Of a stretch of DNA of 64,000 nucleotides, positions 25,631 to 55,880 are shown piece after piece. Position 1 is the first letter of the stretch; each line of letters opens with the position of its first letter. The notes beneath the pieces are model-generated. The model did not search any database and was not told the origin of the DNA. It saw only the letters and a program-made list of their open reading frames with translations. The translations under genes and the position numbers were made by a program. This DNA comes from an uncultured Nitrososphaerota archaeon (GTDB taxonomy: Archaea; Thermoproteota; Nitrososphaeria; Nitrososphaerales; CADDZS01). The stretch spans positions 1,568,001-1,632,000 of the forward strand of contig CAWCYI010000006.1 of the NCBI GenBank assembly GCA_963799845.1, read 5' to 3'.

Positions 25631-25664
25631 CTGGGAGAGATAAATTTGTCCATCCTACCAGGCT
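25631..25664 (-). repeat. dispersed 11-6-11 palindromic site, copy C
   Basis: Minus strand AGCCTG-GTAGGATGGAC-AAATTT-ATCTCTCCCAG. Confidence 0.8.
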
Positions 25665-25771
25665 CCGCGGACTTAAAGCGGATGTGGATTTGAGCACGAA
25701 TTTACTATGTGGTGTGTGCTCCTTGGACCGATCGACTGTCTGCGGCTGAATCGAACTGACTGCATCATAGC

Positions 25772-26545
25772 TTAGCTTACTACTTTCCTGAACTGGTAGA
25801 GGGTTACGACAAACGTAGCGACGGCTATGATCGCCGTCAAAACATAGCCCTCGACCAGCGTGTTGAAATTTAGTCCACCAGAGACGAGCTCTCGTATTAC
25901 ATTCGAGATGTAGGTGACCGGGTTGTAATTGGAAAAGGTCTGTGCCCATCCGGGGAGAAATGAAACTGGAAACATTGCTGTGCTGAGGAAGATTAATGGC
26001 AGGTATAGAAAACCAGAAATTGCTGAGAGCGTCTCCGTCTTCTTGGTGGCAATGCCTATCGCTAGGAAGAGACCAGAAAAGGCCATCTCGAAAAATGCAA
26101 CGGTCAACAAAATCAACATCACTCCGGGTAAGCCGGATGAAATGGTCACGCCCATCACGATTGCGGCAACGATCGTGATGATGGTCTCCGCCACCACAAG
26201 CGAAATATCGGTCAACAACCTGCCCAACAGGATTGCTGATCTTGACGACTGGGTCAGTAAGGTCTTCGAGAGAAATCCAGAGTTTATGTCGTTCACAATC
26301 GAGACACCGCTCTGGGGGGAAGTTATTAGAGCACAAAAGACCAGAATTCCAGGTGTAAGATAAGCGATATAGCCCCCCGTGTGACTGGGTAAGAAAAGAG
26401 CCAGCTTTGTGAACATCTGAGAAAAGAGCACTAGGAAGGCAATAGGCTCTACTAGGTACGTAACGAGTAGAGTTGGATTCCTGCCCATTTTTATCAGGCC
26501 TCTCTGGAATAGAGATTCTGTGTCGTAGAGTAGTGTCAAACCCAA
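25772..26545 (-). CDS. ABC-2 type transporter permease
   Basis: 6 TM segments; PGI, FLSTAMFP...LPGW...NPVTY. Confidence 0.92.
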   Translation of the reverse strand: MGLTLLYDTESLFQRGLIKMGRNPTLLVTYLVEPIAFLVLFSQMFTKLALFLPSHTGGYIAYLTPGILVFCALITSPQSGVSIVNDINSGFLSKTLLTQSSRSAILLGRLLTDISLVVAETIITIVAAIVMGVTISSGLPGVMLILLTVAFFEMAFSGLFLAIGIATKKTETLSAISGFLYLPLIFLSTAMFPVSFLPGWAQTFSNYNPVTYISNVIRELVSGGLNFNTLVEGYVLTAIIAVATFVVTLYQFRKVVS

Positions 26546-26549
26546 CTCC

Positions 26550-27542
26550 TCACATCAGGAACGGTTCGGTCTCCTTTCTTTTCAGCTCCTCTGACCTTAT
26601 TCGTCGACCGGTGTGCTTCAAGAACACGTCGTCCAAGGTTGGCGAAGAAATGCTGAGAAACGAAGGGTGGATACCGTTCCTGTCAAGCGTCGTGACGACA
26701 TCGATGACCTTCTCACCCCCGTTTTCGGCGCAAACCATGACTCCGTCATTCGAGTCGAGGACGTCCGAGATTCCCTTGACTGTCTTGAGGATCTCCTTTG
26801 TCTTCGCTCTGACGGAAGGGTCGAGCGTCAATGCGATTGTATCACCACCCATGGCCTCTTTGAGTTCTAAAGGGCTGCCGTTTGCAATCAATTTACCATG
26901 ATCTATAATCGAGAGCTGGCGGCAGAGCCGATCGGCCTCCTCGAGGTATTGGGTCGTAAGGAAAATCGTTTTCCCCTCTTTTCTGTTCAAATCTTCGAGA
27001 TATTCCCAGATTGCCGTCCGAGATTGAGCGTCGAGCCCCGTGGTCGGCTCGTCAAGGAAGAGAAGCCTTGGATTGTGAATCAGAGCGGACGCGAGGTCAA
27101 GCCTCTTCCTCATTCCACCCGAATAGCGGCCCGCCGGCTTGTTTGCAACCTCTTGCAGCTGCACCAGCTTCAGTAATTCTTCGATTCTGTCTGTAAGAGC
27201 TTGGCCGTGAAGCTGCTGCAAACGGCCTTGGAGGCGAAGGTTCTCCCAACCTGTCAGGTCGACGTCGGCGCTTGTCTCTTGTGTAAGGACTCCTATGGAC
27301 TTTCGGATCTCCTTGGGCGACTTGTCAATGTCGAAGCCCGCGACCATGACGCGCCCTGAAGTCTTTCTAAGCAGTGTAGTGAGAGTCTTGATGGTCGTGC
27401 TTTTTCCGGCTCCATTTGGACCCAAGAATCCGAAGAACTCGCCCCCCTTAACTGAGAACGAAATGTCCTCGACCGCGCGCGTCCCGTCTTCGTAGACAAC
27501 CACGAGGTGATCTACGGAGATGATCTCTTGCATATTTTTCAT
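26550..27542 (-). CDS. ABC transporter ATP-binding protein (DrrA-like)
   Basis: GPNGAGKST, YSGGM, LDEPTTGLD; C-terminal PTLDDVFL..TGR. Confidence 0.95.
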   Translation of the reverse strand: MKNMQEIISVDHLVVVYEDGTRAVEDISFSVKGGEFFGFLGPNGAGKSTTIKTLTTLLRKTSGRVMVAGFDIDKSPKEIRKSIGVLTQETSADVDLTGWENLRLQGRLQQLHGQALTDRIEELLKLVQLQEVANKPAGRYSGGMRKRLDLASALIHNPRLLFLDEPTTGLDAQSRTAIWEYLEDLNRKEGKTIFLTTQYLEEADRLCRQLSIIDHGKLIANGSPLELKEAMGGDTIALTLDPSVRAKTKEILKTVKGISDVLDSNDGVMVCAENGGEKVIDVVTTLDRNGIHPSFLSISSPTLDDVFLKHTGRRIRSEELKRKETEPFLM

Positions 27543-27752
27543 TCCCTAAGTTCGGGTGAGATTCATCATTGCAGGGCGCTATGCTCACTTCATCTAAAGG
27601 CGTATAAAAAACGGCCACACATTTCTCAATCCTGAGAATTGAGAAATAAAGAGAAAATTCCTCATCTGGCAACGAATGAATGTTAGGAGAAAGAGTTTAG
27701 CCTGACTGACTTGGAAATAAACCCCTATTCTTGGATTCGATTTGCTTTGAGA

Positions 27753-27872
27753 ATGATGCTTGCCACTTGCGAAAGATGCAATAAGCCAATTTTTGACGAT
27801 GAACATTACACAAGTCTTCCCGGGCATCCGCCTAGAGGCATTCATAAAGAATGCCCGAAAACCGCTTTCTAA
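27753..27872 (+). CDS. 39-aa putative zinc-finger microprotein
   Basis: MMLATCERCNKPI...GIHKECPKTAF*; CxxC and HxxC; below the ORF-track cutoff. Confidence 0.5.
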   Translation: MMLATCERCNKPIFDDEHYTSLPGHPPRGIHKECPKTAF

Positions 27873-28100
27873 CCAAGTTAATCCCTGACTGGAAATAATA
27901 ATTGACGGAAAAAAACAGGGAGAAGTAACTGGCGATATCGACACAGAACCGCGTAGGATTCGAATCTAAGCTACTGACATGTAGAATTTTGATAACTCAG
28001 ATGATTAGTGCAGGGAGAAATTTACTGGAGGAAGAATTTCTGATATCAAAATTGATAGATGTGTGGATATGGAGATGACTCTTAACCCCCAAAGTGCAGT

Positions 28101-28117
28101 GAATCCCATCCCCTCCA
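28101..28117 (+). other. tRNA 3'-end-like remnant, candidate att site
   Basis: GAATCCCATCCCCTCCA resembles T-loop end, T-stem, acceptor strand and discriminator; 65 bp upstream of the integrase; no partner copy seen. Confidence 0.4.
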
Positions 28118-28182
28118 CACCGTTCTCCGGTTCTGAAGGGGAGCGCTTAAATGAGTGCTGAGCCTTCCATTTGATGTAATCT

Positions 28183-29586
28183 TTGAGTTTCAAGTCATAC
28201 AGGAAGAAGGAGTACGAGCGGCTGCTCGACGATCCTGTCGTCAAACGGTGGTTCGACAATTCTGCCAAATCGAGTCGAGCCCACGCCGACATTAACCTCA
28301 GGATCCTCGGAAGGTTCTGCGACAAGATAAAAATGACCCCGTCGAAGTACGCGATGCTACCTCTTTCAAAGATGCAAGACCTGGCAGAGGATTATATTAC
28401 TCATCTGGAGAATGCCAAGAAGCCTGACGGGACACCGTACTCTCCAAGTTATGTGGAAAACTGCCTGACGGCCATCAAGGGCTGGGCTAGACGTAACGAC
28501 AAACCATTCAACAGAAAAATAGCCATCAAGAACGCTAACGCCACTCCAACGCTGGAACAAGAAAGGATTCCCACCAGGGAAGAATTGAAGCGGGTTCTGT
28601 ATCTGGGAACGACCCCGCTGAGGACGCGGGCGGGCATTGCAATAATGGCATTCAGCGGTTGCAGGCCCGAAGTCCAAGGCGACGATCTGGGGTTGGATGG
28701 TCTGAAGATCAAAGACTTGCCCGAACTTAAGGTGAGCGAAACAGAGGTTGTTTTCACAAAGATCCCTGCTCTCGTGATCGTCCGGGATAACCTGTCAAAA
28801 ACTGGATTTTGGTACCCCACATTTTTGGCGGAAGAAGGCTGTCAAATAATCGTTGAGCTGCTAAACAAACGAATCAGGGATGGGGAGAAGCTTGGTCTAT
28901 CCTCGGGAATCATCGTTACCAGCCGCGAACAAGCAAGACGGAGCAAAAGTTTCGAGAAGATCGGAATCAAGGACGAGTCTCCCTTTTTGCGCACGACAAA
29001 AATCTCGGACAACGTGAGACAGGCTATGCGAACAGCCGGTCTGCCGTGGAGACCCTACGTTTTCCGCAGTTATTTCGACACCCTCATGCTACTGGCGGAG
29101 AACGAGGGCAAAATTTCCCACGCGTACATGCAATGCTGGGCCGGCCATGCTGGCGACATCGAGGTCGTCTACACGACGAGGAAACACGTTCTTCCTCCCG
29201 AGCTTCTGGAAAATATGAGAGAGGCATACAAGAGATCGAGCGGCCTGCTTCAAACCATCGAATACAAACCCACTGCATCTGAAGATCTGGAAAAGTTCAA
29301 GCAATGGCTGCTGCTCACGGCGGGATACCCGCGCGATCAGGTTAACTCAATGAACGTCGGAGAAATGAGCGATGATGAAGTCGCAGAAAAGCTGGACAAA
29401 AAAAAGGCAAACAACGGAGGCAAGAAGCAGAAGCTCATTCCACTCGAGAACCTGGATGATTACCTATCCCGCGGTTGCGAGTGCGACAAAATAATAGAAA
29501 GCCGCGGTCAAGCTATAGTAAAGTTGCCCTTTGATTGGAACCCCCAGGATTCGAAAAATATCATAGACGACTCGATTCCGGCCTAG
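28183..29586 (+). CDS. tyrosine recombinase / site-specific integrase
   Basis: SGCRPE (R), YVFRSYF, WAGH, VYT (Y) catalytic motifs. Confidence 0.9.
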   Translation: MSFKSYRKKEYERLLDDPVVKRWFDNSAKSSRAHADINLRILGRFCDKIKMTPSKYAMLPLSKMQDLAEDYITHLENAKKPDGTPYSPSYVENCLTAIKGWARRNDKPFNRKIAIKNANATPTLEQERIPTREELKRVLYLGTTPLRTRAGIAIMAFSGCRPEVQGDDLGLDGLKIKDLPELKVSETEVVFTKIPALVIVRDNLSKTGFWYPTFLAEEGCQIIVELLNKRIRDGEKLGLSSGIIVTSREQARRSKSFEKIGIKDESPFLRTTKISDNVRQAMRTAGLPWRPYVFRSYFDTLMLLAENEGKISHAYMQCWAGHAGDIEVVYTTRKHVLPPELLENMREAYKRSSGLLQTIEYKPTASEDLEKFKQWLLLTAGYPRDQVNSMNVGEMSDDEVAEKLDKKKANNGGKKQKLIPLENLDDYLSRGCECDKIIESRGQAIVKLPFDWNPQDSKNIIDDSIPA

Positions 29587-29943
29587 TTATGCGGCCTCAG
29601 AGGCATGTTAAGTCGCGCAACTTTTTCGGTTGTGTTCGCACAGTACTTCTCGTTGACTTCTACAAGATTCTTCGTAGAAGTGCCATGCTAAGATATCCCA
29701 CGCCGTATGAAACATTGCCGTAGCTCTCGCCTTCTATGGGTTCTGAATCCTCTTTTGCTGACTGGAATACGCGTTGTCTCGAAGCTGATTTTCGTCCTAA
29801 ATTCCGCGAGATTGATTAGATAAAATCAACTAGCACGATTCCAAGTCGTACCAACTGATAAAATAAATAAGAAAAAGTGAAGAAAAGATTGATGCCAAGG
29901 GATTCTGTTGACTCTTTTCCGGTTTTAAACGTGGATATTTCTT

Positions 29944-31089
29944 TTATCTCGATTTCTTCTTTTTCTTCGGCTGGAAAAGAGGTTCAGGAACTCCCATGTA
30001 AGCAGCAAGGGTGGGATTTTGCTGATTTTTGGCTCGATAATAATCTTGTAGCGTGTTTCTGGCCTGTAAGAAGTCTGCTGTCTTTATGTCGTCAATTCTA
30101 GATTCAACCCAACATTTTCGAAGCTCCGAACCAAGATTCTCTTCCTGTCTTGATTTTGCCTTAATTTTGAAGGCTCCATTTAGTTTCTCGTCTGGCTCGA
30201 TAAATTTGATTTTTAGACCTTCATCGATAATAGCTTGAATAAGGTCTTTTTTTTCTTTGGAATCCAAGGTTGGAAGGTAACTATCGACTCGTTGACGGAG
30301 TATCTGGGTCAAAACCAGATATGGATTCTTAACCAAATTCCTAGAACGTATCAGGAGATTCACTTTAGAAAACATGTGGCTTTGTGGAAAAACGCCGTAC
30401 ACGTTGACAGCCGATGCTAATCCATCCTCGCCCAACACGCGATTAAGTTCTTTATCACGATGAACCCTTCCTTCGAACTTTTCATCTGAGGGCCGAAAAA
30501 GTGACAGCCTAAATTTATCAATATCAGCTTGCCAAAGTATGATCTTCCTATTGGTTTGTTTGATATGGTGATTCACTTCACCCGCTACATAGGGAGTAAC
30601 AGCAAGAACATATTCTAGGATAGGATTAGTTTTTAGTCCGAGTAAGTCCTTCACTTGATCTAAGTTTTTCTCTACGTATTCGATTTTCTTATCAATATCT
30701 GCAAGTTCACTAGGGATATTTGACATAGCAATTCGCGATTTACCTTCACCGAAAATTGCAATTGGATTGTCGCTTTGTCGCTTCGCAATCAAGAAGTCAA
30801 AGATTGGAGGCTTATTGTCCGTATTTTTGTAGAAAGGGTCTGCGACTTGGAAGGCGTAGCCAAGTTGCCTAGTAGGCATGCTAGTTTCTTCGAAAATATG
30901 AATGCAGAGATCAATCATATCATCATGATTTTGAGCAGTCTCAATCTCTTGAGATAAATTATCTCGAAGATTGCCTGCTTCCTTTCTGTAATATTTGGTT
31001 TTTTCTTTTTTGAGATTCTTTAGATCTCCTTTGTAAAGGGCCTGAAGTTGAGGTTGGATAGTCTGTTCAAATCCATCATCATCCACCAA
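29944..31089 (-). CDS. putative PD-(D/E)XK nuclease
   Basis: FDFLIA...IFGEGKS resembles the D...ExK motif. Confidence 0.6.
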   Translation of the reverse strand: MVDDDGFEQTIQPQLQALYKGDLKNLKKEKTKYYRKEAGNLRDNLSQEIETAQNHDDMIDLCIHIFEETSMPTRQLGYAFQVADPFYKNTDNKPPIFDFLIAKRQSDNPIAIFGEGKSRIAMSNIPSELADIDKKIEYVEKNLDQVKDLLGLKTNPILEYVLAVTPYVAGEVNHHIKQTNRKIILWQADIDKFRLSLFRPSDEKFEGRVHRDKELNRVLGEDGLASAVNVYGVFPQSHMFSKVNLLIRSRNLVKNPYLVLTQILRQRVDSYLPTLDSKEKKDLIQAIIDEGLKIKFIEPDEKLNGAFKIKAKSRQEENLGSELRKCWVESRIDDIKTADFLQARNTLQDYYRAKNQQNPTLAAYMGVPEPLFQPKKKKKSR

Positions 31090-31094
31090 AAAAA

Positions 31095-32219
31095 CTAGGC
31101 ACCGAAAGTATTCAATGTCGCTGTATCGTCAACTTCTTCGAGAATCTGACGATAGAAATCTAGAAAGCTTTCAAAAGTACATTCTTTTGTGTGTGGTATT
31201 AGAGCAATTTCGCTCTCATTCGAAGAGATACCAAAGATACTTTCTTTTTCACGATCCATGGCGGTCGCAATCCAATGAAATGAACCTTTATCTTGCTTCT
31301 TATCAAGAAATTCGAATCTCCTGCTGTCAGCAAATTCGAACCTCCTATGGATCGACATGAATTCTTTGACAGTATTATCATCTAATTTTTTGGCGTTTAG
31401 CCTAATTTTTCCAGATGTTAGAGCTGGAATCTTCATCTTACCAGTTTCAGAAACAATGGTTTCAAAATCTCTTTTCAAAAGTTGAGATGTGGCAGTCAAT
31501 TTTGCTTCCTTATCTTTGATGTAACTTAATGCGTAATCAAATGCATTGAACATTTCTTTGGTTTGGCTACGAACTGTGAATAGACCATCGTTGGTGAATT
31601 GTATCTCCCCACCTTTCATTCGAAGAGCCACAGAAGTTGGTCTTATTCCGTAAGTCGCTCTTAATTCCAAAAGTGTCTCATAACTATCTCTGGCTCTCCA
31701 AAACACTTTGCGACTCACATCACGTTTTGTTTTTTCTGGAAAAGTGTCATCTTCTGCACGATTCGCTCTGAACCACCTCATTGTCGGATGAAATTTGTCC
31801 ATAACGTGAAAGAGCAAATCCTCAAAAAGCCTAGGCCCTATCCACATCTTTCCGAAACCAGATGTTGTTTTGACAAAATAATCCAAAGTATTGGAATATT
31901 CCTTTCCTGTTGAAGAGCTGTAAAAAAGTAAAAGCTTTGGACTAAATCTAGTCACAAAGAAGTCAGTTCGTGAATTTTCGTTAGAAAAATCTGGAATTCT
32001 AACATGCCAAAAGTCGCCTAGATCTCGCACACGGTATTTCAGGAGCTTTAACTCCAACATATTCTCACGAGTTCTTACGGCATGAATTTTTATCCACTTG
32101 TACTTCTTTCCCTGAGAGAATAAAGTAGCTTTATCTCTATTCTTGATCATACACTCATGAAAGGTTTCAATCGTGTACTTTCCGTCAGGAATTTGAAACT
32201 CTTGCTCGGTAGAAGACAA
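31095..32219 (-). CDS. hypothetical protein, co-transcribed with the nuclease
   Basis: 374-aa AT-rich ORF, 5 bp from the next gene. Confidence 0.8.
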   Translation of the reverse strand: MSSTEQEFQIPDGKYTIETFHECMIKNRDKATLFSQGKKYKWIKIHAVRTRENMLELKLLKYRVRDLGDFWHVRIPDFSNENSRTDFFVTRFSPKLLLFYSSSTGKEYSNTLDYFVKTTSGFGKMWIGPRLFEDLLFHVMDKFHPTMRWFRANRAEDDTFPEKTKRDVSRKVFWRARDSYETLLELRATYGIRPTSVALRMKGGEIQFTNDGLFTVRSQTKEMFNAFDYALSYIKDKEAKLTATSQLLKRDFETIVSETGKMKIPALTSGKIRLNAKKLDDNTVKEFMSIHRRFEFADSRRFEFLDKKQDKGSFHWIATAMDREKESIFGISSNESEIALIPHTKECTFESFLDFYRQILEEVDDTATLNTFGA

Positions 32220-32309
32220 AGCGCACGTATTTTCTCTTGGGGTTGCTCCCCTCTTTAAGAGATTTGCTGTTTGAAATCCAGATTGGTAATTGGCATATAA
32301 TACATAGAA

Positions 32310-32570
32310 AGTCAGCCTTGAGATTTTTCTTGAGCTTTTGTTTCCACTCTTCCTGAGTGATGACTCTTTTCCTCAAGAAGCTCCGCTAGATTGGTGATCA
32401 TAGTCTCGAGTACATCGGTATCTTCACTTTCTTTGTTCCTTCTTTTCATTAGCACTTTTTCCACCTTTATCCAAGTATCCTTTTCGCTCAAGTAAGCTAG
32501 GACGATCGCTCTAATTATGTCACTATATCCTCATCCCAGCTCTCCCACCAGTTCGGAATTGATCTGGTAA
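32310..32570 (-). pseudogene. degraded CopG/RHH-like gene and small partner
   Basis: ELVGELG*GYSDIIRAIVLAYLSEK followed by LAELLEE/VITQEEW with a frameshift. Confidence 0.5.
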
Positions 32571-32587
32571 TGCAACTAGAGCTTTTT

Positions 32588-32775
32588 TCATTCTTTTCTA
32601 GCCAGCTGCAAAGCTTCGATTGCACTTCCTTCGGGATTTGTCCACAGTTGCAAGGTTTCGTTCTGTGTGGCATTCTCGATTAGCTGTTTCCAAACTTTGA
32701 TTTCAATTCCAGCTCGTAGAGCTGGAGTTTTGCCCTTGAAGCTCATGTGAGGGCGGATGTAGTTGTAATATGTCG
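32588..32775 (-). pseudogene. C-terminal remnant of a DDE (rve/IS6-like) transposase
   Basis: YYNYIRPHMSFKGKTPALRAGI motif. Confidence 0.7.
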
Positions 32776-32951
32776 TGTCTCTCTCAAGGATTAGTCTAGC
32801 ACAATCTTGGTTCTTTGAATCCCCCGGTGATTCGGCATTTTTCTTGATCCTCTGGTGGCAGTCCAGGCAGAGAATCGAATTCGTTTGACTATCCTTTCTA
32901 TCGACGGGCGCTCTCGCTAGTTCCATGAGTCTTCCTGAAGCAACTTGGCAG

Positions 32952-33308
32952 CTACACTTGCAGGGCGGTCGAAGGATTTCGCAGAAGTTGAACATCATCA
33001 TTGATCAAACTTTGGTTCGATATCAAGACGTTAGACGTCTCTACTAATAGGCGAGCCACGACTTTTCCCTTCGGGGTCAATTTCACAAACATGCGTCGAG
33101 CTACCCTGTCATCAATGTCAAACTCCTTTGTATCCTCGATTTCCATTAACCCATTTACCCACAATGATTTTTTCTCCTTGCTCCAGGTTGAACTGCTGAT
33201 ATTGCTTAGAATTGTGATCTCATGGCAGGTGAGTGTTCCTTTAGGGCAAAACAGAAGCTCGTTTAGTATTCTGCACTCGATTTCGCTGAGAACTGGTACA
33301 TCGAGCAA
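32952..33308 (-). CDS. MarR-like wHTH protein
   Basis: HTH and RRMFVKLTPKG wing. Confidence 0.6.
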   Translation of the reverse strand: MLDVPVLSEIECRILNELLFCPKGTLTCHEITILSNISSSTWSKEKKSLWVNGLMEIEDTKEFDIDDRVARRMFVKLTPKGKVVARLLVETSNVLISNQSLINDDVQLLRNPSTALQV

Positions 33309-33415
33309 CTCTAAGCGATGGCTGCAACAGCGTAGGAATAGAAAACCAATTCGATTTAGTCTTTCTGAGGATCTTCGGGTTATTTTCTTCGTAGATTTGC
33401 AGGTTAGCTCGACGG

Positions 33416-33775
33416 TTGAATGATAGCAAGCTATTGATCACCGAATATCTCGAAGCCTTCTCCTACGTCTGGCAGATGGAAAGAATGTCTCACAAAATCT
33501 GCAGAAATCATCGAGGAATGAAAGTCGCATATGATCCGGAAAAGTATCGGCAGTGCCTACTTTGTTCAAGAGAACGAGAATTGGATCTATTCATTTCGGC
33601 AATGCAGGGAATGTTGGAGTACGGAACATTGCATGGCAAGCAAATGGATTTGATGTTCAATAACGCTTCAGATGCGCAACGTAGAGAACTATCTGCACAA
33701 AGCGACGACATAGTTCAAAAGATCCTAAAAGACTTGAAGGATGCAACAGACATAAGGAAAGCAACCTACGGGTGA
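33416..33775 (+). CDS. hypothetical protein (CxxH/CxxC)
   Basis: ORF with CRNH...CLLC. Confidence 0.5.
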   Translation: MNDSKLLITEYLEAFSYVWQMERMSHKICRNHRGMKVAYDPEKYRQCLLCSRERELDLFISAMQGMLEYGTLHGKQMDLMFNNASDAQRRELSAQSDDIVQKILKDLKDATDIRKATYG

Positions 33776-33852
33776 GCGTGCCCAAACAAATCCTTAGGAA
33801 GACTGGTTTGGCATAGTCCCAATCTTCTTACGATTCTTCTTCCCCTTTGCGG

Positions 33853-37437: not shown

Positions 37438-37445
37438 GCTTTGGA

Positions 37446-43572: not shown

Positions 43573-43624
43573 AACTAGTTGCTGTAGTCCGTTCACATTC
43601 TATGTTCTCCAGTCATCCATGCAA

Positions 43625-45193: not shown

Positions 45194-45616
45194 TCGATTA
45201 CAGCCACCACCTATGTCTATGTATGAATGCCTAAAAGCTCATTGAGCTTCTGTGTCTTATTTGATGAGTAAATCCTTTTCAACAATTCTCCTCGATGTTG
45301 CTGCAAAAGGTCAATGAAGACAAACAAGCGCTTCAAGCTTTCCGCCCGTGTAAGCAGTTCAAATCCTCAGGCCATCAGGCCTGTTCTTGAAAGCTGTTCA
45401 AGAAGCAGGCAAAGGATGATCGGGTGTTGATGATTGTTTATTCGATTTTTTGGACCGGCTAATGGCGTCTTTCTATTTGTGAGCGGTTAGCTCGATATGA
45501 AGTGGTAGAAGCATAGTGAGAATTTTTCCGCGAATGCTTCTTATTTTCGATGTATTTGGAGAACGAACAATTTAAAGTGAAACCACAAATAATGGGTCCT
45601 TCGATCATCAGAAAGC

Positions 45617-47020: not shown

Positions 47021-47052
47021 ACTGTAGTGCAAACATGCCAAGTATGACGCTC

Positions 47053-49332
47053 TCAAAGTGTTTGTATCACTTTCCTGACCTTTACGCACAGAACGTCATT
47101 CGTGTGATACAGTTCGCATAACGCCCTAAACTTGCTTCTCTTTTTGATTAGCTGCCTCGGACCAACGTAATCTGATGCGTGCAGTCTTGCGTGCCACCTC
47201 TGGTCGACCAGCACTACTGCTTGCCCCTGCATCACTTTCTCTATTTCGACTTCCATCAACTTGGAACCTGAAATCTCCTTGGTGGTCGATAGAGTCACAA
47301 CTCGTTGTTGTCCCTTTTTTCCCGTCTTTTGATCTTGCTCGTAATCTCTCGTTCTTCTCCCAATCTTGTCACCCTTGCTATCATCACCACCGCTACTCGA
47401 AAGGTAATTTCTCTTTACAAGCCTGTGAAGAGCGGCCTTTACTACGCTTGCCTGAAATCCTTCATCCCGCTCCAGTAGCTCAGCGTATAGTGTGTCTTCA
47501 TCAAGTCCGACCATTCCAGATTCTAGGATTCTCATGTAGATCGCGCGCTCGGCACGCGACACCATCCTGCCAAAGGCTTTGACCCGCTCGTAAGTGTTTT
47601 CTTCCAGCGTCTCTTCACGTGAACTGATCCCCTGCATACTTGAGCTGAGTTTATCGAGCTGAAGAAGTTCCTCTCGGGTCATGGGATTGAGTGGGGGTCT
47701 CGGTCGCAATCCAAGTACGGGCTTTAGGAACTTCTGGTTGAGCGTCTCAGTAATCTTCCTCATCCTTTCCGTCCTTCGCTCCGAAGCATGCAAGTAGACT
47801 ATGTCGTTTGTATTCCTTGCAGCCAGAATGATGACCCTACCAACAGATCTTCTTCCAGTTCTGCCTCTCCTCTGGATGTACCTGATCTCCGATGGGATTG
47901 GTTCGTAGAATATTACCAGATCAACTTCCGGGATGTCGAGTCCTTCCTCCGCGATGGACGTTGAACAAAGCGTGTTGATGTACCCCTTCCTGAAATCGTC
48001 TATCCGTGACGCCTGCTCATCCTGACTCAAGCCCTTGTCGCGAATCTTGGATGCCTGTCCCACGAACCTTTCCGCTCTAACTCCCTTTACCTTGTTCAGT
48101 TCTTCAACAAGGTGAGTAGTCGTGTCCCTGTACTGGGCGAACACGAGCAACCTGGACTTTGGGTTTGAGCTGATTTGCGTCGAAACTATTTTCTTGAGCT
48201 CTTCGAGCTTTGGGTGCTCGACGTAACACTGACCCCGCTTTTCGTCCAGAAGAGTCCTGAGACTTGCGTACGGTTCCTCGCCTATTATCACTGAGTGTCC
48301 CTTCTTACCCTCGCCGTTCTCCTCAATCCTTTGCATGAAGCATCTAAGGGTGTACGCCCCTTGCGTGTCAAGGAGCTCGATCATGTGGAATAACGTGAGC
48401 GCCTGCGACTGGAGCGAAATCGCGTAATACAGTGGCCCCCTTTCCTCTTCTATGCTCATCTCCGCACGATACCTGAGCTCGGAGCCGAGGTCGATAAGAT
48501 CCATTCGCGATACAAACGCTGAGCTCTTCTTCAGATAGCCGCGCGCTTTGATCGTGCCGATCCTGCGGTCGAGCATTCCTCGGAGTATTCCTCTCACAGG
48601 CTCGTAAGCCAAAGGCAGATCAACTTCCCTGCCCTCGACAGTTATGGGGTTGATGAATGGTTTCACATCAGGATCTTCGTCAGTGCGGTGTTCAACGTGC
48701 TCAATGTGAAGTGAGTTGCACACCATCATTATTTTTCTGATGTCAGAGCCCGGAGATGCTGTCATTCCCAAGATCAGGGGAAACTGGGAACTATTTGCGT
48801 ACGTTTCTGCCACTTCCGTGTAGGCGTATTCTTTTACTGACCGGTGACACTCGTCAAACACGACCAGGCCGAAATCTTTCAAGCTGGAAAGCTTTCCCTC
48901 GCGAAGATCGTTTCTAACAACCTGGGGAGTTGCGAATACTAGCCTCTGTTGCGGAGACGACCACACACCAGCTCTGTAATCTGCAGGCGTCTTACCCGTC
49001 AACAACACAAATTTCTCTTCAGGGAGCCTGATCAAGCTCTGGAAACTTCTCTTGTGCTGCATCACAAGAGGTCTCGTCGGCGCCATGATCAGCACTCGTG
49101 AATCCCTGTAATTCAGGAGAGTATCGACTGCAACAAGGGCTGAAATTACAGTCTTTCCCAGCGAGGTAGGTAAGATTACCAGAGTGTTTTTGTCGAGAGC
49201 GGTCTTTGCTATGTAGGTCTGATACAACCTTTCCTCAACGGTATGAGGATATATGAGAGGGTGGGATACGAATTCTTTCGGATTCTTCTCGATGTGCCCA
49301 AGCTCCTCCTGCTGTGGCTGCTCCGTTGTCAA
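47053..49332 (-). CDS. Hef/FANCM-like SF2 helicase without ERCC4 nuclease domain
   Basis: HPLI, RLYQ, PTSLGKT, DECH, TASPG, EEGLDIP, QRRGRTGR. Confidence 0.9.
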   Translation of the reverse strand: MTTEQPQQEELGHIEKNPKEFVSHPLIYPHTVEERLYQTYIAKTALDKNTLVILPTSLGKTVISALVAVDTLLNYRDSRVLIMAPTRPLVMQHKRSFQSLIRLPEEKFVLLTGKTPADYRAGVWSSPQQRLVFATPQVVRNDLREGKLSSLKDFGLVVFDECHRSVKEYAYTEVAETYANSSQFPLILGMTASPGSDIRKIMMVCNSLHIEHVEHRTDEDPDVKPFINPITVEGREVDLPLAYEPVRGILRGMLDRRIGTIKARGYLKKSSAFVSRMDLIDLGSELRYRAEMSIEEERGPLYYAISLQSQALTLFHMIELLDTQGAYTLRCFMQRIEENGEGKKGHSVIIGEEPYASLRTLLDEKRGQCYVEHPKLEELKKIVSTQISSNPKSRLLVFAQYRDTTTHLVEELNKVKGVRAERFVGQASKIRDKGLSQDEQASRIDDFRKGYINTLCSTSIAEEGLDIPEVDLVIFYEPIPSEIRYIQRRGRTGRRSVGRVIILAARNTNDIVYLHASERRTERMRKITETLNQKFLKPVLGLRPRPPLNPMTREELLQLDKLSSSMQGISSREETLEENTYERVKAFGRMVSRAERAIYMRILESGMVGLDEDTLYAELLERDEGFQASVVKAALHRLVKRNYLSSSGGDDSKGDKIGRRTRDYEQDQKTGKKGQQRVVTLSTTKEISGSKLMEVEIEKVMQGQAVVLVDQRWHARLHASDYVGPRQLIKKRSKFRALCELYHTNDVLCVKVRKVIQTL

Positions 49333-49434
49333 AGCATGGGCACCGCGTATCTATCCGTCGACAACTTCGTATCTGCCCAACCGCTCACAATTTGAAAGGC
49401 GCCCACTAGTACCAAAAATCTAACAAGCAATCAA

Positions 49435-49809
49435 TCAGATTTCTAACACGTCTTCGCCTTGCTTTGCTCCCGTAGATCTCGAGGCAGTTTTCGGGTTTAC
49501 GCTATCCACTCCCTGAAGTAGCGGAGTAAGCTTGTCAAACTGGAAGAGTTCTCTAAATTCTTCGAGCTCCTCCTTGGACCTCAGGACTAACCCTCTCTTC
49601 TTCGTTGCTGCACCCGAACCGTCAACGGGATTCAGTTCTACCGCGAGTCTGGTCGGGATGCTCTTGTACGCGGGCATCTTTAGGACAAACACGCCTGGCA
49701 CGGAAGTCTTGAACCTACCCCAATCGGGGCCAGTCTTCAGGAATGAGGCCAGTTTTTCTTCAAATGATGATGAGGACGACAATTTGCTTTTTCGATCACT
49801 CGCACACAA
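49435..49809 (-). CDS. small conserved-looking hypothetical protein
   Basis: FLKTGPDWGRFKTSVPGVFVLK...ELNPVD. Confidence 0.7.
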   Translation of the reverse strand: MCASDRKSKLSSSSSFEEKLASFLKTGPDWGRFKTSVPGVFVLKMPAYKSIPTRLAVELNPVDGSGAATKKRGLVLRSKEELEEFRELFQFDKLTPLLQGVDSVNPKTASRSTGAKQGEDVLEI

Positions 49810-49897
49810 TTTGGCTTTTCACTCTGGTTTGTTAATAAATATTCAAGTGCTAGATCTTCGCCGAGTACTCAACGCTCTTGGGGTTGAACAGCGTTTT

Positions 49898-50203
49898 TTG
49901 AACAAAGATATTACAAAGGTTCTTGTTGTCTTTCCAGAAGCGTGGAGTCGCTCTAAGAGACAGTATGTCAGGCTCACTTCCAAGCCTACTGCAGACAACA
50001 AATCAACCAGTACAGACTGGTTAGGGCACAAATATGATTTTTCACATAACCGCAACAAGGCGAAGATAGAGTACGGTGAGGACGACGTTAGAAAACTTGA
50101 GACTGCTGCTGATTCCTCGATTCTCCGAGTCAGGAGTGATCGAGGCGAATACAAATTTGAGAAGACAAATGGAAAGTGGGTTCAAATGGTTGAAGAAATC
50201 TGA
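49898..50203 (+). CDS. hypothetical protein
   Basis: 3' part of ORF 49532-50203, TTG start. Confidence 0.5.
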   Translation: MNKDITKVLVVFPEAWSRSKRQYVRLTSKPTADNKSTSTDWLGHKYDFSHNRNKAKIEYGEDDVRKLETAADSSILRVRSDRGEYKFEKTNGKWVQMVEEI

Positions 50204-50305
50204 ATGATGACTTTCGATCCGGCCAAGTGATTGTTGCCAGATGATGAAAGAGCTGCGAAATCGACGGATCAGCCTCTCCGTCTTAGCGATGTATCCACCA
50301 GCTAA

Positions 50306-50527
50306 CTAAACTGTGATGGTGAATCCCACCCTTATCGCGCAATCGATGTGGTAGTATCGCGCCCCCACCTTCGATCCCTTGCTCATTGCGTACTTTGTTT
50401 CAATGGAACGATCGCAGTACTTGCACTTCGGTCGATTTTCCCTGCCGCGTTTTCGCACCCGGAGGTCGACTATTTTTATGCTCCTGGTTGGGCTCACAAG
50501 CACTGGCTTTCTTTCCTCATTCATCAC
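50306..50527 (-). CDS. small zinc-finger protein
   Basis: CKYC...YYHIDCA. Confidence 0.6.
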   Translation of the reverse strand: MMNEERKPVLVSPTRSIKIVDLRVRKRGRENRPKCKYCDRSIETKYAMSKGSKVGARYYHIDCAIRVGFTITV

Positions 50528-50777
50528 TGGATTCCTTCTGGAAGTTCTGCTGCGCGATAAAAACTCTACCGATGAATTAAGGATCGCTTGATTGTGTAAC
50601 TATACTCTCATTTCACTCGGACTGATTCAAGTGTGTGCAACTGAGATACAATATTTCTCGTCTATGTAAGGGGGATTATTTCCGACTTACATACAATCTT
50701 TTTGAAATCCGTCGATATTGAGACAAGCGAGATCATCGTAATTAGCCAAACTTGAAATAGAAAAACATCAAAATTTA

Positions 50778-52634
50778 TTGGAGAGGAAATTGTCCAACAG
50801 ACCATTCGTCAAGCGCATCTCGGCAGTTTCACTTGTTGTTGGCGTTCTTGCCATAGCAGTCATAATTCTCATAGCCGTGTTGGGAGCTCTGTCTTACCAG
50901 TACGCTTCAGAAATTTCTTCGACCAGAACCTCTACAACCACAGTAACAGGGACGCCAACGGTCGAATCCACAACTCAAACCGTAGTGACATTTACACCCA
51001 TTCAGGGTACCGTTACGAGCACAGTCACTACAACGCTTACATCCAGCATCTACCAGACGTCGACTAGCACTAGCGTTACTCCAAGTACGCAGATCCTTTC
51101 CTCTCTTAACCAAAGCCACGCATTTCAATTCGTAGATGCCAGCACGATTAATGAAACGGGTGGTTTGGTAGGGATAAACGCCACGTTCAGGAATAATATG
51201 GCAACGTCTCAAGACATCTTGATCGTCGGTGTCGCGTACACGGCGAGCATAGCAAACGAATCTGTATTGGGCGGTGCGATATGCTGCCCAGTTGCTCGGG
51301 GTTATTTTACGAATAATTCGTCTACGGCGACTGCTGGATTGAGCGCAAATGCAGACTCACAGTTTTCCGCAAACCTCGCATTCGATTCACTAAAGGACGG
51401 CGCATATCTCGTCGAACTCTACGTTGCCTCGCTCGATGGGACAGTACAGTCACCCGTCTCGAGCATGTTCCTCGAGGTTTCTTCATCAGGCGGCGCATCT
51501 TGCGGAGGGCAAGAGGGCGCAAGTTCCACCTTCGTCGATCCTGACAACGGAATGATCTATGTAGCCAATTCGGGTATCGACAGCGTGTCAGTGATCAATA
51601 GTTCTACAGGCAGAGTTGTTGCAACCATTTCTCTCCCTGATCTGATCGGGTCGTTTGGCTTTTACACGTACGATCACGACAATGGCGTGCTTTATGTTGG
51701 AAGCGAAGAGTCAAACCTGATCTTCGCGATAAACACTACGACCAATTTTCTTGTCAGTCAGCCAAATCTATCCACGGGATCGATTTTGCTTGATCCTTCA
51801 AACGGCGAAATATTTCAGTTTAGCAACGACCTGATATCAGTAACAAACGGCACGACGGACAGGATAATTGCCAACATAACTGGTATTCAATGGCTTTCGT
51901 ACGACTGGCTTTCTTACGATCCAGTAAACGAAGAGATCTACGTACAAGCTTCCAACTATAGCATCTTCGCGATAAGTGGCAACGACGACAGAATAGCTGC
52001 GGAAATCCAGATGCCGACTAGCGGATACTCGGATCCTCTTTTCGATCAAGATAATGGGTTGTTCTACGCGATTGCGAATGGAAGCGTTCTTGTGATCAAT
52101 TCATCGACGAACAAATTGTTGCCAACTACGATACCGCTTCCAAGTAGTACCGGAATGGGTTACACTCCTGTCCTGTACGATCCTTCAAACAATGAGATCT
52201 ACTTGTACGGGGCGGAACAATTCGAAAACTCATCAGGAAATCCGGATATATTAATTGCGATAGACGGGGCGAATAACAGCGTGGTTGCTACGATTCCAGT
52301 GGCAGGCCTCTTTGCAGGACTGGTCGATGAAAGCCCATCTTTCTTCTACGATTCATCCAACGGCGATCTCTATGCGACGTCTGACCTGAACCTCCAGAAC
52401 GGCACAACGGGATTGCTGCAAATAAGTCAGACGAACAAAATAATTGCGCAAACCGTTTTGCCTCAGTGGCCATTCGGCCAGGAGGTTGGGGGTCTAACTT
52501 TCGATTCAATCAACAATATGGTATATGGAACGACCGGCGGCACAACCGTTTCCGTCTTCTCGATAAACAACCCTGCTACATTGGTCTCCACTATTCAACT
52601 CGGCAATTGCCCGGTTGGTTATCTGCTTCCATGA
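50778..52634 (+). CDS. membrane-anchored YncE/YVTN beta-propeller surface protein
   Basis: TM, Thr stalk, repeated YDPxNxxIYV and VSVIN...VVATI. Confidence 0.88.
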   Translation: MERKLSNRPFVKRISAVSLVVGVLAIAVIILIAVLGALSYQYASEISSTRTSTTTVTGTPTVESTTQTVVTFTPIQGTVTSTVTTTLTSSIYQTSTSTSVTPSTQILSSLNQSHAFQFVDASTINETGGLVGINATFRNNMATSQDILIVGVAYTASIANESVLGGAICCPVARGYFTNNSSTATAGLSANADSQFSANLAFDSLKDGAYLVELYVASLDGTVQSPVSSMFLEVSSSGGASCGGQEGASSTFVDPDNGMIYVANSGIDSVSVINSSTGRVVATISLPDLIGSFGFYTYDHDNGVLYVGSEESNLIFAINTTTNFLVSQPNLSTGSILLDPSNGEIFQFSNDLISVTNGTTDRIIANITGIQWLSYDWLSYDPVNEEIYVQASNYSIFAISGNDDRIAAEIQMPTSGYSDPLFDQDNGLFYAIANGSVLVINSSTNKLLPTTIPLPSSTGMGYTPVLYDPSNNEIYLYGAEQFENSSGNPDILIAIDGANNSVVATIPVAGLFAGLVDESPSFFYDSSNGDLYATSDLNLQNGTTGLLQISQTNKIIAQTVLPQWPFGQEVGGLTFDSINNMVYGTTGGTTVSVFSINNPATLVSTIQLGNCPVGYLLP

Positions 52635-52696
52635 TTAAGGTCTGGTAGCATGGAGTCCCGATTTTTCAGCGGAGACATTACCACATCTTCCAGAAG

Positions 52697-52918
52697 GTGA
52701 CCAAGCCTTCGAGCTTCTTGTCGATGGGGAAATTGAAGGCAGTACCTCTTTACGATCTGGCGGCCCGGCAGCTGAATGTGATCGAAACTAAGCAAGAGAC
52801 AAAAATTATTGAAAGAGAAGTGGTGAAGATTCCCTGCAAATACTGCGGAACGCTTGTCGACCCAGTCAGAAATGAAAAGTGCCCGAACTGCGGTGCGCGA
52901 CTTTATTTGAACAGATAG
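52697..52918 (+). pseudogene. zinc-ribbon C-terminal fragment
   Basis: IIEREVVKIPCKYCG...CPNCGA. Confidence 0.5.
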
Positions 52919-53076
52919 ATTCTCTACAATCTCTCTTTCGGCGTTAATCCCTGGGATCTGCTTAACGTTTTATACGAAAGGGTTTTTCCCTGCGAGTGGG
53001 AATACACCTGGCCCCGTTTTCATGCTAAATCGAGGCTTACTGCGTGGGTGTCGCAACCAAGAAGTAGCTCGTCAAG

Positions 53077-53364
53077 TTGAAACAGACTAAAATTCTAACG
53101 CTCGAGAGATGCAGCTGCGGAGCTTATCGCTACATCCTAGCTCGGGATCAGGACCGAGTTATCACGTTTTACATACAGCACTTGCTAAAGAATTCTGAAA
53201 AACGAGAATCTAAACTCATCCAGTTATTCCGGGTGAAGAAGGCCCTGCTCAATTTCCACGATTCCAGTATAACCAGAGCTAGACATGCGGCTTGCGCGGA
53301 TCCCCGTGAGCATGAAACTCTATCAGAGATCATCGCAGTTATCACGAAATCGAAATCAAAGTAA
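53077..53364 (+). CDS. small hypothetical protein
   Basis: 95-aa ORF with CSCG. Confidence 0.4.
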   Translation: MKQTKILTLERCSCGAYRYILARDQDRVITFYIQHLLKNSEKRESKLIQLFRVKKALLNFHDSSITRARHAACADPREHETLSEIIAVITKSKSK

Positions 53365-53416
53365 GAATTGTGAGCACACGCCTCTGAAGAAGAATTATCT
53401 GTTCACAGGCGCTCGC

Positions 53417-54343
53417 TCAGGCGGTGGTTGAAGATGTGGACGACGATGTGACTGTGCTACTGCAGTACTGTGGGGAGGAAGTGCTGTTGCTTGTTTGAAG
53501 CAGCATGGAAGGAAGACTGTAACCGGTTGGAGTACGCAAGATATCTGCCGAGATGTAGTCGGTCACGTTCTGAAGATTACCGCAGTACAAGAATAGCTGA
53601 TCTGTAAAATGGTAGAATGCTACGCCCACGTCGAAGGTGTTGTAGCTCGATCCGCAGAAAGAGCCATTCGGATTGGTAAAGTTCTTTCCATTCTCAAGAG
53701 CGATGAACTCTGGGTTTGCCGTCACAAGAGTTTCTAGCTGATAGTTGATTGTACTGTTGAACTCCCTCGGGCATGGAGAAGACGCATTGAAGTTTGGATC
53801 CAAGCAGCAGTAGGGCTGGATACGGACGACCGCCTCGCTCCCTCCGGGCCAATCATAACTTTCCGTGGTGGCATTTCCGTCCGCAAATATAGCTGTCACG
53901 AGGAAGACGTTGCTCACGTTGGTGACTTCGGAGTTGCCATCGAATCCCATGATCGAGTCTCCAGCCAAAAGCGGGAAGGCCGGTGTTGACGCGGCGCTGG
54001 CGGACCATGTCGGTCCCAAGAAGAGGTTGCCAAAGGACATATTGACTCCAGTAATTGGAGTTGAGCCAGTATTGCTAATTACGATGGAAACATTACCGCA
54101 GAGGGAGCAGCCTGAAACTGGTGCAAAAAACAGGCGTACAGAGGAGATGGCGAATCGGTCGCTGCTGTTCAGAATGCCCATGGTCTGATTTACTTTCGAA
54201 GTCAAGGTTGTCGTAGCCGTGGAGTAAACGATTGTTGAGCGGGTCTTGGGAGCTGGAACGCTATTGATTCCCGTAAAGTAGCCAGCAAGGCCGGTTAAGA
54301 CGATCACAACAATAACAGTCGTTGCAAGGATCCAACTTTTCAA
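53417..54343 (-). CDS. membrane-anchored Cys-containing surface protein
   Basis: N-terminal TM, Ser/Thr-rich, many NxS/T sequons. Confidence 0.8.
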   Translation of the reverse strand: MKSWILATTVIVVIVLTGLAGYFTGINSVPAPKTRSTIVYSTATTTLTSKVNQTMGILNSSDRFAISSVRLFFAPVSGCSLCGNVSIVISNTGSTPITGVNMSFGNLFLGPTWSASAASTPAFPLLAGDSIMGFDGNSEVTNVSNVFLVTAIFADGNATTESYDWPGGSEAVVRIQPYCCLDPNFNASSPCPREFNSTINYQLETLVTANPEFIALENGKNFTNPNGSFCGSSYNTFDVGVAFYHFTDQLFLYCGNLQNVTDYISADILRTPTGYSLPSMLLQTSNSTSSPQYCSSTVTSSSTSSTTA

Positions 54344-54568
54344 TGCTTGCCCGTTCAGTACGAGGGCAGTTCTTTAAAGCTACTTTCCAGAACAGCCTGT
54401 TAAGCAGTTCGATGCTTTTTTCCAACAGTCGTGCCCCCTTGGTACACCTTTCAAGCCATAACGGAAGCAGTCATTTCAACCGTCCAGGAATTCGACGACC
54501 GATCTCTCGGGATTTTAGTAACTTAGGAAATAACCTTGAGTGTTAGTAGTTTTAGCGTATGGTCGCCT

Positions 54569-54602
54569 AGCCTGGTAGGATGGAGAAATTTATCCCGCCT
54601 AC
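54569..54602 (+). repeat. dispersed 11-6-11 palindromic site, copy A
   Basis: AGCCTG-GTAGGATGGAG-AAATTT-ATCCCGCCTAC. Confidence 0.8.
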
Positions 54603-54684
54603 TACTTATGTTATCGACATCTGACGCTGTTCAAACCCAAAAACGGCCTTATTCTGCTCTGTATAAGATAATCCTCCTCAAAAC

Positions 54685-55488
54685 CTACTTAGATGGAGCT
54701 TGGTGACCTGAGGTCGCGTGATTCACGACACTCTCATTTGACTTTTCCTGAGTGACTCCAACGTCTGTGGACGACTTTGGAAGAAACATTGCCCCGATAC
54801 AAGCGAAGGCGAGCACCTTCGAGATGCCGTTCAGGGCGAAGGAGAGAAGAGTGGTCGGAGAAGAAAAGCCATCCAGTGCCCACAGACCCCAAACAAACAT
54901 CATGGCGGCAAACATGTAGACCGCATTTGTCGTTAGAGCGATCCTTCGCGATAAAAGCAGCAAAGATAAGGTCGTGATTCCAATTATGAATATCGGTACG
55001 AGAGATATGATTAGAGAGATAGGCGGTATGTTGAGCGCGCGCGCGTTGAGTGGAATTATGATTAGCACGAACGGCAGTTCGAATAGCATTGCTCCCGCGA
55101 TAAATCCGAGGAAACCGTTTCCGAGAGACAGAGGTCCACCGCGACGAGTCACATAAGCCGCATAACAGAAAGTGCCGACTGCCGAGAGAATCGTTATGGG
55201 AAAAACGGGACCGAGCGCGAGGTTTCCCGCAGCGTTCATCCTGACGAAGAGTAATATGGAAAGAGCCCAAATGACGATCACGATTGCCCCGACATCTTTT
55301 CCCATTTTGGGAAGCTTGATCGGTCGTCCTTTCATTCTCCGCGCCTCCAAAAAGAGTCCCGCACTTATCAGAAATAGGATCAGAGAAAGCTCTATCGCGC
55401 TCAATCCCGTGTAAAGGGCCAGATTGGTGCTCTCTGAGCAAGCGGACCCATAGTTCCAAATATTATTGTTAGCTAATTTAAGAATCAT
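54685..55488 (-). CDS. multi-pass membrane protein
   Basis: About 7 TM segments. Confidence 0.8.
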   Translation of the reverse strand: MILKLANNNIWNYGSACSESTNLALYTGLSAIELSLILFLISAGLFLEARRMKGRPIKLPKMGKDVGAIVIVIWALSILLFVRMNAAGNLALGPVFPITILSAVGTFCYAAYVTRRGGPLSLGNGFLGFIAGAMLFELPFVLIIIPLNARALNIPPISLIISLVPIFIIGITTLSLLLLSRRIALTTNAVYMFAAMMFVWGLWALDGFSSPTTLLSFALNGISKVLAFACIGAMFLPKSSTDVGVTQEKSNESVVNHATSGHQAPSK

Positions 55489-55846
55489 GCCGACAAATTG
55501 GTCTTACCACATGGAGACGAATGCATCCTCACAAGAAGTGAAAGTTTTTTCTTCTGTAACCAAAAAGATATTCTTTGACGATCTTGTCCGAGACGAGATA
55601 TGCTTCGTCTCTCCCGTCTGCGGGTGAGTAACACTCTATAGATTGGGTTATTCCCAAGGGGAACTCTGCGTAAATGCAACGAACCTGGATTCACAGCAGA
55701 ACCTCACATTAACCCTCTAAGTTCTTGGCACAAGCAAGAGCACCAACGCTTCCGATCCAACCGTGAGCGATTGCGCTACATTGGGGCTTAACCAATCCTT
55801 ATCTTGAAAAGGGGAAGGAAAAAGTCCTACAAGTTTACGTCCGCCG

Positions 55847-55880
55847 AGCCTGGTAGGAAGGACAAATTTATCCCTCCTCA
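55847..55880 (+). repeat. dispersed 11-6-11 palindromic site, copy B
   Basis: AGCCTG-GTAGGAAGGAC-AAATTT-ATCCCTCCTCA. Confidence 0.8.

Follow-up and report, generated by a model that had tools for sequence, protein, structure and literature searches.

Xer/dif systems use one site per chromosome, in which both arms are conserved and each binds one recombinase monomer, and pdif modules, which reside on Acinetobacter plasmids, are flanked by inverted sites. Enterobacterial repetitive extragenic palindromes and bacterial interspersed mosaic elements (REP/BIME) occur in tens to hundreds of copies and are associated with a RAYT gene, and integrons have been reported in archaea. Here we describe a short, imperfectly palindromic motif found in three intergenic copies (A, B, and C) in a 64-kb stretch of DNA (the window) from a Nitrososphaerales-type archaeon (genome G000, G+C 47%), and we compare it with these systems and with the tRNA-targeting attachment (att) sites of archaeal integrases. 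As described in PMC8371274, a tRNA-like segment with a dyad is a classical substrate of tyrosine integrases, archaeal att sites may extend over the D-loop, pTN3-like integrases target the 5' half of tRNA genes, and tRNA anticodon stem-loops fit the core-site layout of integrases; an 11-6-11 geometry is given there for archaeal dif sites. PMC6563490 reports short thaumarchaeal att sites (median 17 bp) and a thaumarchaeal element that recombined with the 5' part of a tRNA-Ser gene, and both articles describe the re-use of sites to build tandem arrays of elements (PMC8371274; PMC6563490).

The motif is rare, lies between genes at the junctions of gene modules, starts sharply on the left and fades on the right, consists of a tRNA-like block followed by a dyad with an AT centre, and is tied to tRNA-3'-end-like repeats and to a tRNA hot spot. 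This combination, kept at low copy number across two genera, fits an attachment-type recombination site, or its relic, better than the rival explanations weighed below. We tentatively read the motif as the possible conserved core of a tRNA-mimicking attachment-type site, or a relic of one, at module junctions; judged by these sequence features, it would most likely mark old or still usable docking sites for integrating DNA.

Extent, distribution, and gene context of the motif

The three copies lie at 54569-54602 (A, + strand), 55847-55880 (B, + strand), and 25664-25631 (C, - strand), and a direct sequence check confirmed these coordinates, which come from a first-pass annotation of the window. 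A search pattern of 26 bases taken from A, B, and C, with up to three mismatches allowed, matches all three sites and nothing else in the window, and none of 100 dinucleotide-preserving shuffles contains any match. The same sites are the sole matches in the whole 4.6-Mb, nine-contig assembly, in which a reversed-pattern control gave none. All three window copies are real, not chance matches. A and B are direct repeats spaced 1278 nt apart, and C is inverted relative to both. By repeat finding, the pairwise similarity extends over 37 nt for A and B (89%), 44 nt for B and C (91%), and 36 nt for A and C (86%), and the B/C repeat takes in the upstream GTCCGC.G that the annotation had noted for these two copies. 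The motif was originally given a length of 34 nt, but the unit common to B and C spans ~90-110 nt, and that of A ~40 nt.

A word-7 BLAST search and an nhmmer profile search of G000 found one extra copy, D (C4:1993511-1993548), which is weaker and degenerate; A, B, and C are the only close copies genome-wide, but a fourth exists on another contig. Three of the four copies are clustered within 30 kb, in an island with an integrase gene, insertion sequence (IS) elements, and a truncated hsdR gene. The pattern search of 13 genomes of the family gave one further match (F1 in G002), and a class-wide pattern search of 401 genomes gave no match beyond G000. From six copies we made a sequence-only covariance model; in the 13 family genomes it picked up two copies in G003 (G and I), J in G002, H in G011, which belongs to another genus, and the truncated copy K. 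F2 was found 312 nt from F1 in G002, the interval being non-coding. Two short contigs of a metagenome collection carry M1 (L070) and M2 (L071), and a genome-contig collection contributed one locus, in a record titled Thaumarchaeota MAG (metagenome-assembled genome), while a pattern scan of a viral contig collection gave 0 matches. The scan of the genome and its relatives suggested by the annotation therefore delivers a rare family of 12 copies and one truncated copy, in four genomes of two genera and two metagenome contigs, with four copies in G000 and one to four, K included, in each relative holding it. No Rfam family matches at gathering score in the window, and only chance-level rows appear around the copies at E values up to 10. 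The metagenome runs that contain window DNA are from soil and peat, and no RNA run is listed for it. At C3:30747-30890 of G000, the left part of the I3 repeat described below is followed, ~80 nt on and on the opposite strand, by a degenerate D-arm-like piece and a TTAGGGCT box, and this piece may be a decayed fifth copy of the motif in that genome.

Ten loci could be scored for gene context. All are intergenic, four between convergent genes (F, G, H, and J) and six between genes on the same strand (A, B, C, D, I, and K), with none in a divergent spacer. Each scorable copy lies 3' of a stop codon on one or the other strand, at 18-140 nt in nine of the ten loci and at 343 nt for D; the distance to the next start codon varies from 35 to ~360 nt, and so does the orientation. 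Copies D and G (L008 5401-9969 and L042 3-1478) adjoin members of one paralogous TPR-protein family (43% identity) with many genomic copies.

The gene arrangement proposed around the three window copies stands (Table 1). A and B bracket a single membrane-protein gene in direct orientation, with a 69-codon open reading frame (ORF) also present in the interval, and C is placed between the ABC exporter, whose ABC-2 permease gene stops at 25772, and the DUF4386 module, whose DUF4386 gene starts at 25280. In G003 and G005, the ABC genes have orthologues that stand among different neighbours, without the motif. The idea that the motif also flanks homologues of the A-B, ABC, and DUF4386 genes in relatives was rejected, as it flanks none of them. 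We also rejected the truncation of hsdR as a breakpoint at B, because the gene breaks off near 56570, 700 bp from B.

Anatomy of the unit and its ties to tRNA sequences

Similarity among the copies begins sharply at a GTC in all 12, and a loosely similar T-rich pentamer precedes this 5' end in several of them. The ~20 bases after GTC resemble the D-arm of tRNAs with a long variable arm (Ser/Leu). In copy A, the D-arm region is identical at 19/19 positions to that of the tRNA-Ser(GCT) gene at C6:655680-655785, the best match among 29 tRNA genes called by ARAGORN; the remaining copies are less tRNA-like, with scores of 10-14 in this comparison. The family covariance model also matches tRNA D-arms, weakly.

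The D-arm-like block is followed by an imperfect dyad centred between AAA and TTT. The 11-bp arms described in the first-pass annotation can be read, with AAATTT as the spacer and 8/11, 7/11, and 6/11 complementary arm positions in A, B, and C, counted by eye, but the right arm is not conserved and the dyad of C is at shuffle level. Across the 12 copies, the left arm and the AT centre are conserved and the right arm is variable beyond ATC, which gives the unit the appearance of a hybrid site. We scanned all copies for 14+14 dyads and compared each copy with 500 shuffles. Copy A reaches 11/14 pairs, above all 500 shuffles; copy B reaches 10/14, equalled by 1.6% of shuffles; and the 9/14 pairs of copy C are no different from shuffles. 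By Watson-Crick pairs, the dyad is good in A and M2 (11/14), fair in B and F1 (10/14), and at shuffle level in the other eight copies, and only these four of the 12 are reached by fewer than 5% of shuffles; A alone beats them all. Further along, B, C, I, J, and M2 have another 50-60 bases in common, more weakly, made up of an A-rich stretch and a TTAGGG box. The profile match accordingly covers 110 positions in C and 97 in B, and only ~40 in A and D.

Several other identities for the unit were tried and rejected. A decayed near-full tRNA copy does not apply, since the similarity of the tail to the 29 tRNA genes is below the shuffle null. For a split, permuted, or intron-bearing tRNA gene, ARAGORN calls none at any copy, and the acceptor strands are unpaired by eye. 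A structured RNA of ~110 nt was discarded on a consensus energy of -6 kcal/mol and the absence of covariation, and a short conserved ORF after the motif on reading frames that are unlike one another among B, C, I, and M2 (by eye).

The motif is accompanied by a second repeat family, which we call I3. It is seen in the window as a 32-nt inverted pair (23373-23404 and 25476-25507) and gives ~39 BLAST hits in G000. An element consists of a core between two copies of one perfect 12-bp palindrome, and the core can be aligned to Leu/Ser tRNA genes at their T-arm and acceptor end. On contigs C4, C6, and C7, I3 copies are co-oriented within clusters, 1-5 kb apart. In G000 and G003 alike, I3-like pieces flank the two-gene DUF4386 block, and no other neighbours are common to the two.

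Within 130 nt of seven of the 12 motif copies (C, F1, G, H, I, J, and M1) there is either a real tRNA gene or a clear tRNA-3'-end-like element; by chance, the ~39 such elements of the 4.6-Mb genome would give ~0.003 per site. In C and M1, the left part of I3 is fused 5 nt ahead of the GTC start, and in H and I, a whole I3 element ends 7-10 nt ahead of it; A, B, D, and F2 have weaker I3 look-alikes nearby, judged by eye. The unit points in the same direction as the neighbouring tRNA-tail element in C, M1, H, and I and is inverted in J, G, and F1.

In G002, the distance from the 3' end of a real, intron-bearing tRNA gene to copy J, which lies beyond it on the opposite strand, is 70 nt. The contig G002:C68 is colinear with G000 C6:360570-378500 on both sides of this locus, and the two diverge from 13 nt past the tRNA end, where G002 has 1.7 kb with a dehydrogenase gene and J, and G000 has 5.8 kb of different sequence. 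In G003, this tRNA gene precedes a 3.3-kb insert; then come a direct copy of the last ~26 tRNA bases and, 28 nt on, copy G. Read from the sequence, the G003 arrangement corresponds to the classical picture of integration at a tRNA 3' end, with the motif as the first feature beyond the putative site. Of the motif copies, J thus lies at a synteny break just past the tRNA gene, in a comparison where relatives are only 65-80% identical. The tRNA gene itself (G000 C6:376385-376551, also G002:C68 and G003:C254) is type II with introns and is Leu(TAA) by eye, a reading from which the ARAGORN call differs. It is a hot spot of integration: three different segments follow it in the three genomes, starting 11-13 nt past its 3' end.

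A possible attachment-type site and rival explanations

If the motif is an attachment-type site, its parts can be given roles. At a sharp GTC junction, ~20 bases would have been copied from, or modelled on, the D-arm of a Ser/Leu tRNA, and the AT-centred dyad would occupy the place of the anticodon stem-loop. A tyrosine integrase might bind the two arms of the dyad and exchange strands in its AT-rich centre, which would join the DNA left of the site to the DNA right of it. Used again and again, alongside the tRNA-3'-end-like I3 sites, motif sites could stack small gene modules that have no integrase of their own and would be left behind at the module seams. That a recombinase acts or once acted on the motif, and which one it would be, is our inference.

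The recognised att sites of archaea, as PMC8371274 and PMC6563490 describe them, resemble the motif in several ways: the 19-nt tRNA identity segment of the motif has a typical thaumarchaeal att length, the adjoining dyad has an AT-rich centre, and the motif lies at the borders of variable blocks, in clustered copies and beside the tRNA hot spot of relatives. The motif differs from tRNA-targeting attL/attR pairs in lying outside intact tRNA genes without the acceptor stem, and in that the segments it flanks have no integrase, one copy is inverted, and the orientation to the tRNA tail varies (PMC8371274; PMC6563490).

A number of observations weigh against an attachment-type site. The seven acceptor-stem bases are absent from all copies, and beyond the D-arm, the unit is no more similar to the 29 tRNA genes than shuffled sequence is. 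No copy lies inside an intact tRNA gene, and the window has no tRNA genes. A classical attL/attR pair is not seen, as the 1.28 kb between A and B lack an integrase, C is inverted, and F1 and F2 enclose 312 non-coding bases. The variable orientation to the tRNA-tail element is not predicted by a simple lambda-type scheme. The copies differ from one another by 9-14%, so any event would be old. In addition, homologues of the resident integrase are found on none of the six motif-bearing contigs outside G000, contigs that are short.

This integrase, encoded by the ORF starting at 28183, had been recognised in the first-pass annotation, and its assignment is upheld: it belongs to a tyrosine-recombinase family by its match to PHROG 1 (integrase; E = 2e-5) and by 224 relatives in a protein collection, some labelled integrase at source and some with PF00589. 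It has no Pfam, NCBIfam, or PDB sequence match and no tblastn match in plasmids or phages, and its homologues are present in eight of 12 relatives. The proposed link between the motif and this enzyme is not supported, given the 0/6 count. A separate candidate, att repeats of the integrase at 27.4-28.3 kb and 49.3-50.8 kb, was rejected because nothing rises above chance. A 57-nt intergenic stretch (50652-50708) has an 82% identical counterpart in G003 (C52), where an integrase homologue lies 300 nt upstream of it, and could, on this similarity, be an attachment site of that integrase family.

By the annotation's proposal, recombination between A and B would release a ~1.28-kb circle. We aligned the contigs of four soil-metagenome runs from one study to positions 51001-61000. 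One contig of 2667 bases is colinear across A, the gene, and B, and neither an A x B joint nor a circle junction was seen in the contigs of the four runs, assemblies that drop rare variants and would hide rare forms. The sole joint and loose ends among the aligned contigs fall at a 1.9-kb repeat (57969-58286).

The strongest competitor is that the motif is a rare module of mosaic intergenic repeats, of the REP/BIME type or akin to a small miniature inverted-repeat transposable element (MITE), spread by a transposase or by copy-paste accidents and without any role in joining modules; we give this a minority chance. It shares with REP/BIME an imperfect palindrome of that size, an intergenic position that is often 3' of genes and never in a divergent spacer, and a mosaic arrangement in which order and orientation next to a second repeat family vary. 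The sharp 5' end, with its T-rich pentamer before several copies, and the two Y1 (IS200/IS605-type) transposase genes in the genome fit as well. In contrast, the profile search finds only four copies in 4.6 Mb, not hundreds, with one to four in each of three relatives, the tRNA-like content is foreign to REP/BIME, and low-copy persistence over two genera is unlike a proliferating selfish repeat. The two Y1_Tnp genes lie hundreds of kb away, no RAYT-type gene stands beside the motif, and the ends of both Y1 elements are unlike it, for which reason the idea that the motif is the end of Y1 transposon copies was dropped. Against the annotation's own alternative of an IS or MITE end, none of the IS elements in the window has the motif at its end, neither terminal inverted repeats nor target-site duplications were seen beside the 12 copies, and the model matches only A, B, and C in the window, where IS66, DDE_Tnp_1, and the 1.9-kb repeat are present. 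An RNA-level 3'-end role is improbable; as a hairpin in the upstream gene's 3' untranslated region, working in both orientations, the motif would stabilise the transcript, terminate it, or serve in its processing. Every scorable copy is downstream of a stop codon, four of the ten loci are convergent, all copies can be folded into a hairpin, and the stem mismatches of M2, B, I, and J are all A.C, which is G.U on the opposite strand. Against it, the consensus fold is weak (-6 kcal/mol) without real covariation, the right arm has not been kept, Rfam yields no family match even when E values up to 10 are admitted, and the tRNA-like 5' block and the tie to tRNA tails are left unexplained. Archaeal termination relies on U-tracts, and most copies have none on either strand.

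The annotation drew on Xer/dif geometry, under which the A-B interval would be a pdif-like module moved by the host XerA, and mentioned a regulator operator; both readings can be set aside, whether the sites are active or relics, and we regard each as very improbable. The Xer/dif reading draws on the ~28-bp dyad, readable as 11-6-11 with eight, seven, and six complementary positions around AAATTT, and on the single accessory gene between two sites. The motif departs from dif and pdif in having four chromosomal copies rather than one, a right arm that is not conserved among the 12 copies, a conserved tRNA-like extension of 20 nt beyond the 28 bp, and a direct rather than inverted arrangement of A and B. 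An operator or promoter element for a dimeric regulator would suit a palindrome with an AT-rich, TATA-like centre in a window with HTH_24 and Lrp/AsnC regulator genes. That none of the ten loci is in a promoter-only, divergent spacer argues against it, as do the four convergent spacers, which have no promoter, the variable distances to the next start codon and variable orientations, which answer the annotation's own check for an operator, and the lack of the motif at the relatives' orthologues of the flanking genes. Like integron attC sites, the motif copies are imperfect palindromes between single-gene cassettes without their own recombinase; unlike them, they show no evident conserved outer attC motifs (by eye only), have no integron-type integrase or attI beside an array, and are few and without a regular array.

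Returning to the attachment-type site, the general idea of recombination sites survives in the seams between accessory blocks, the tRNA-like segment with its dyad, and the tRNA-tail ties, but not in its Xer/dif form nor in the link to the resident integrase. The present analysis adds a second, rarer type of site that would mimic the front half of a tRNA, beside the tRNA-tail sites. Use of these sites by a recombinase would explain how accessory islands of large-genome soil Thaumarchaeota are assembled from modules free of mobility genes, and it would extend the link between tRNAs and integrases to free-standing sites that copy the tRNA front half. Even as relics, the sites would be useful for marking where DNA was integrated long ago in a lineage that is known from metagenomes alone. 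A bolder and rather unlikely extension is that soil Nitrososphaerales of this family move chromosomal gene cassettes by means of tRNA mimicry, with two kinds of short site and tyrosine recombinases acting in trans. Sites of the tRNA-tail (Leu/Ser) and D-arm/dyad kinds would then shuffle, stack, and invert modules without integrases, as an archaeal counterpart of integrons or pdif modules with tRNA-like sites, and C and B, being inverted copies, would delimit an invertible segment of 30 kb. Our narrow search of the literature on integrated elements, att sites, and tRNA in Thaumarchaeota returned no description of such a site, which does not establish its absence from print.

Features around the motif copies and other repeats of the window

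Table 1. Features at and near the three motif copies (window coordinates)
Feature	Position	Strand	Remarks
Complete I3 element	23355..23414	+	Palindrome-core-palindrome; with 25476-25507 bounds the DUF4386 module
DUF4386 gene and 172-codon gene	24022..25280	-	Module on one side of C
I3 core (tRNA T-arm/acceptor-like)	25476..25507	-	125 nt downstream of C; inverted partner of 23355-23414
Copy C, long form	25563..25672	-	Profile match over full length; inverted relative to A and B
Truncated tRNA-3'-end-like repeat, left part of I3	25678..25710	-	5 nt upstream of C; like the fusion in L070
ABC-2 permease and ABC ATPase genes	25772..27542	-	Module on the other side of C
Divergent tyrosine-recombinase (integrase) gene	28183..29586	+	2.5 kb from C
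Degenerate look-alike of the I3 right end	54504..54522	+	~40 nt upstream of A; by eye, weak
Copy A	54558..54606	+	D-arm-like part at 54561-54579, then the dyad centred between AAA and TTT; ~40 nt in common with other copies
A-B gene	54685..55488	-	Polytopic membrane protein with at least six hydrophobic segments; no family match
Copy B, long form	55839..55927	+	Sharp 5' start GTC (55839), D-arm-like part, dyad, A-rich stretch, TTAGGGCT box at 55909-55916
Short look-alike of the I3 core	55920..55930	+	Right after the TTAGGGCT box of B; by eye, weak

Beyond copy B, the hsdR fragment at 56568-57590 (- strand) encodes a type I restriction R subunit of the EcoAI family, covers profile positions 2-325 of 768, and is truncated near 56570. 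It has no orthologue in the 12 relatives, and an HNH gene (57605-57886) adjoins it. The ~1.9-kb repeat that follows (57977-59889) has two more genomic copies, at C7:5961-7875 and C4:42134-43621, with 94-97% identity. It looks like an insertion sequence, none of its four ORFs has a Pfam match, and the metagenome contigs are loose-ended at 57969.

Elsewhere in the window, four consecutive DUF1269 genes occupy 17309-21561, and 17304-18132 and 19004-19861 form a tandem duplicate of a two-gene DUF1269 unit with ~73% identity. A 53-nt inverted repeat (77%; 45464-45516 and 49351-49403) surrounds a 467-codon gene of unknown function and a 759-codon DEAD/ResIII helicase gene. Finally, ~75-115 nt at the 3' end of a DDE_Tnp_1 gene (13960-14075) recur at at least ten genomic places. 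Two of these recurrences are directly upstream of both Y1 transposase genes, each of which lies inside a 1.8-kb element, and the two elements are 98% alike.

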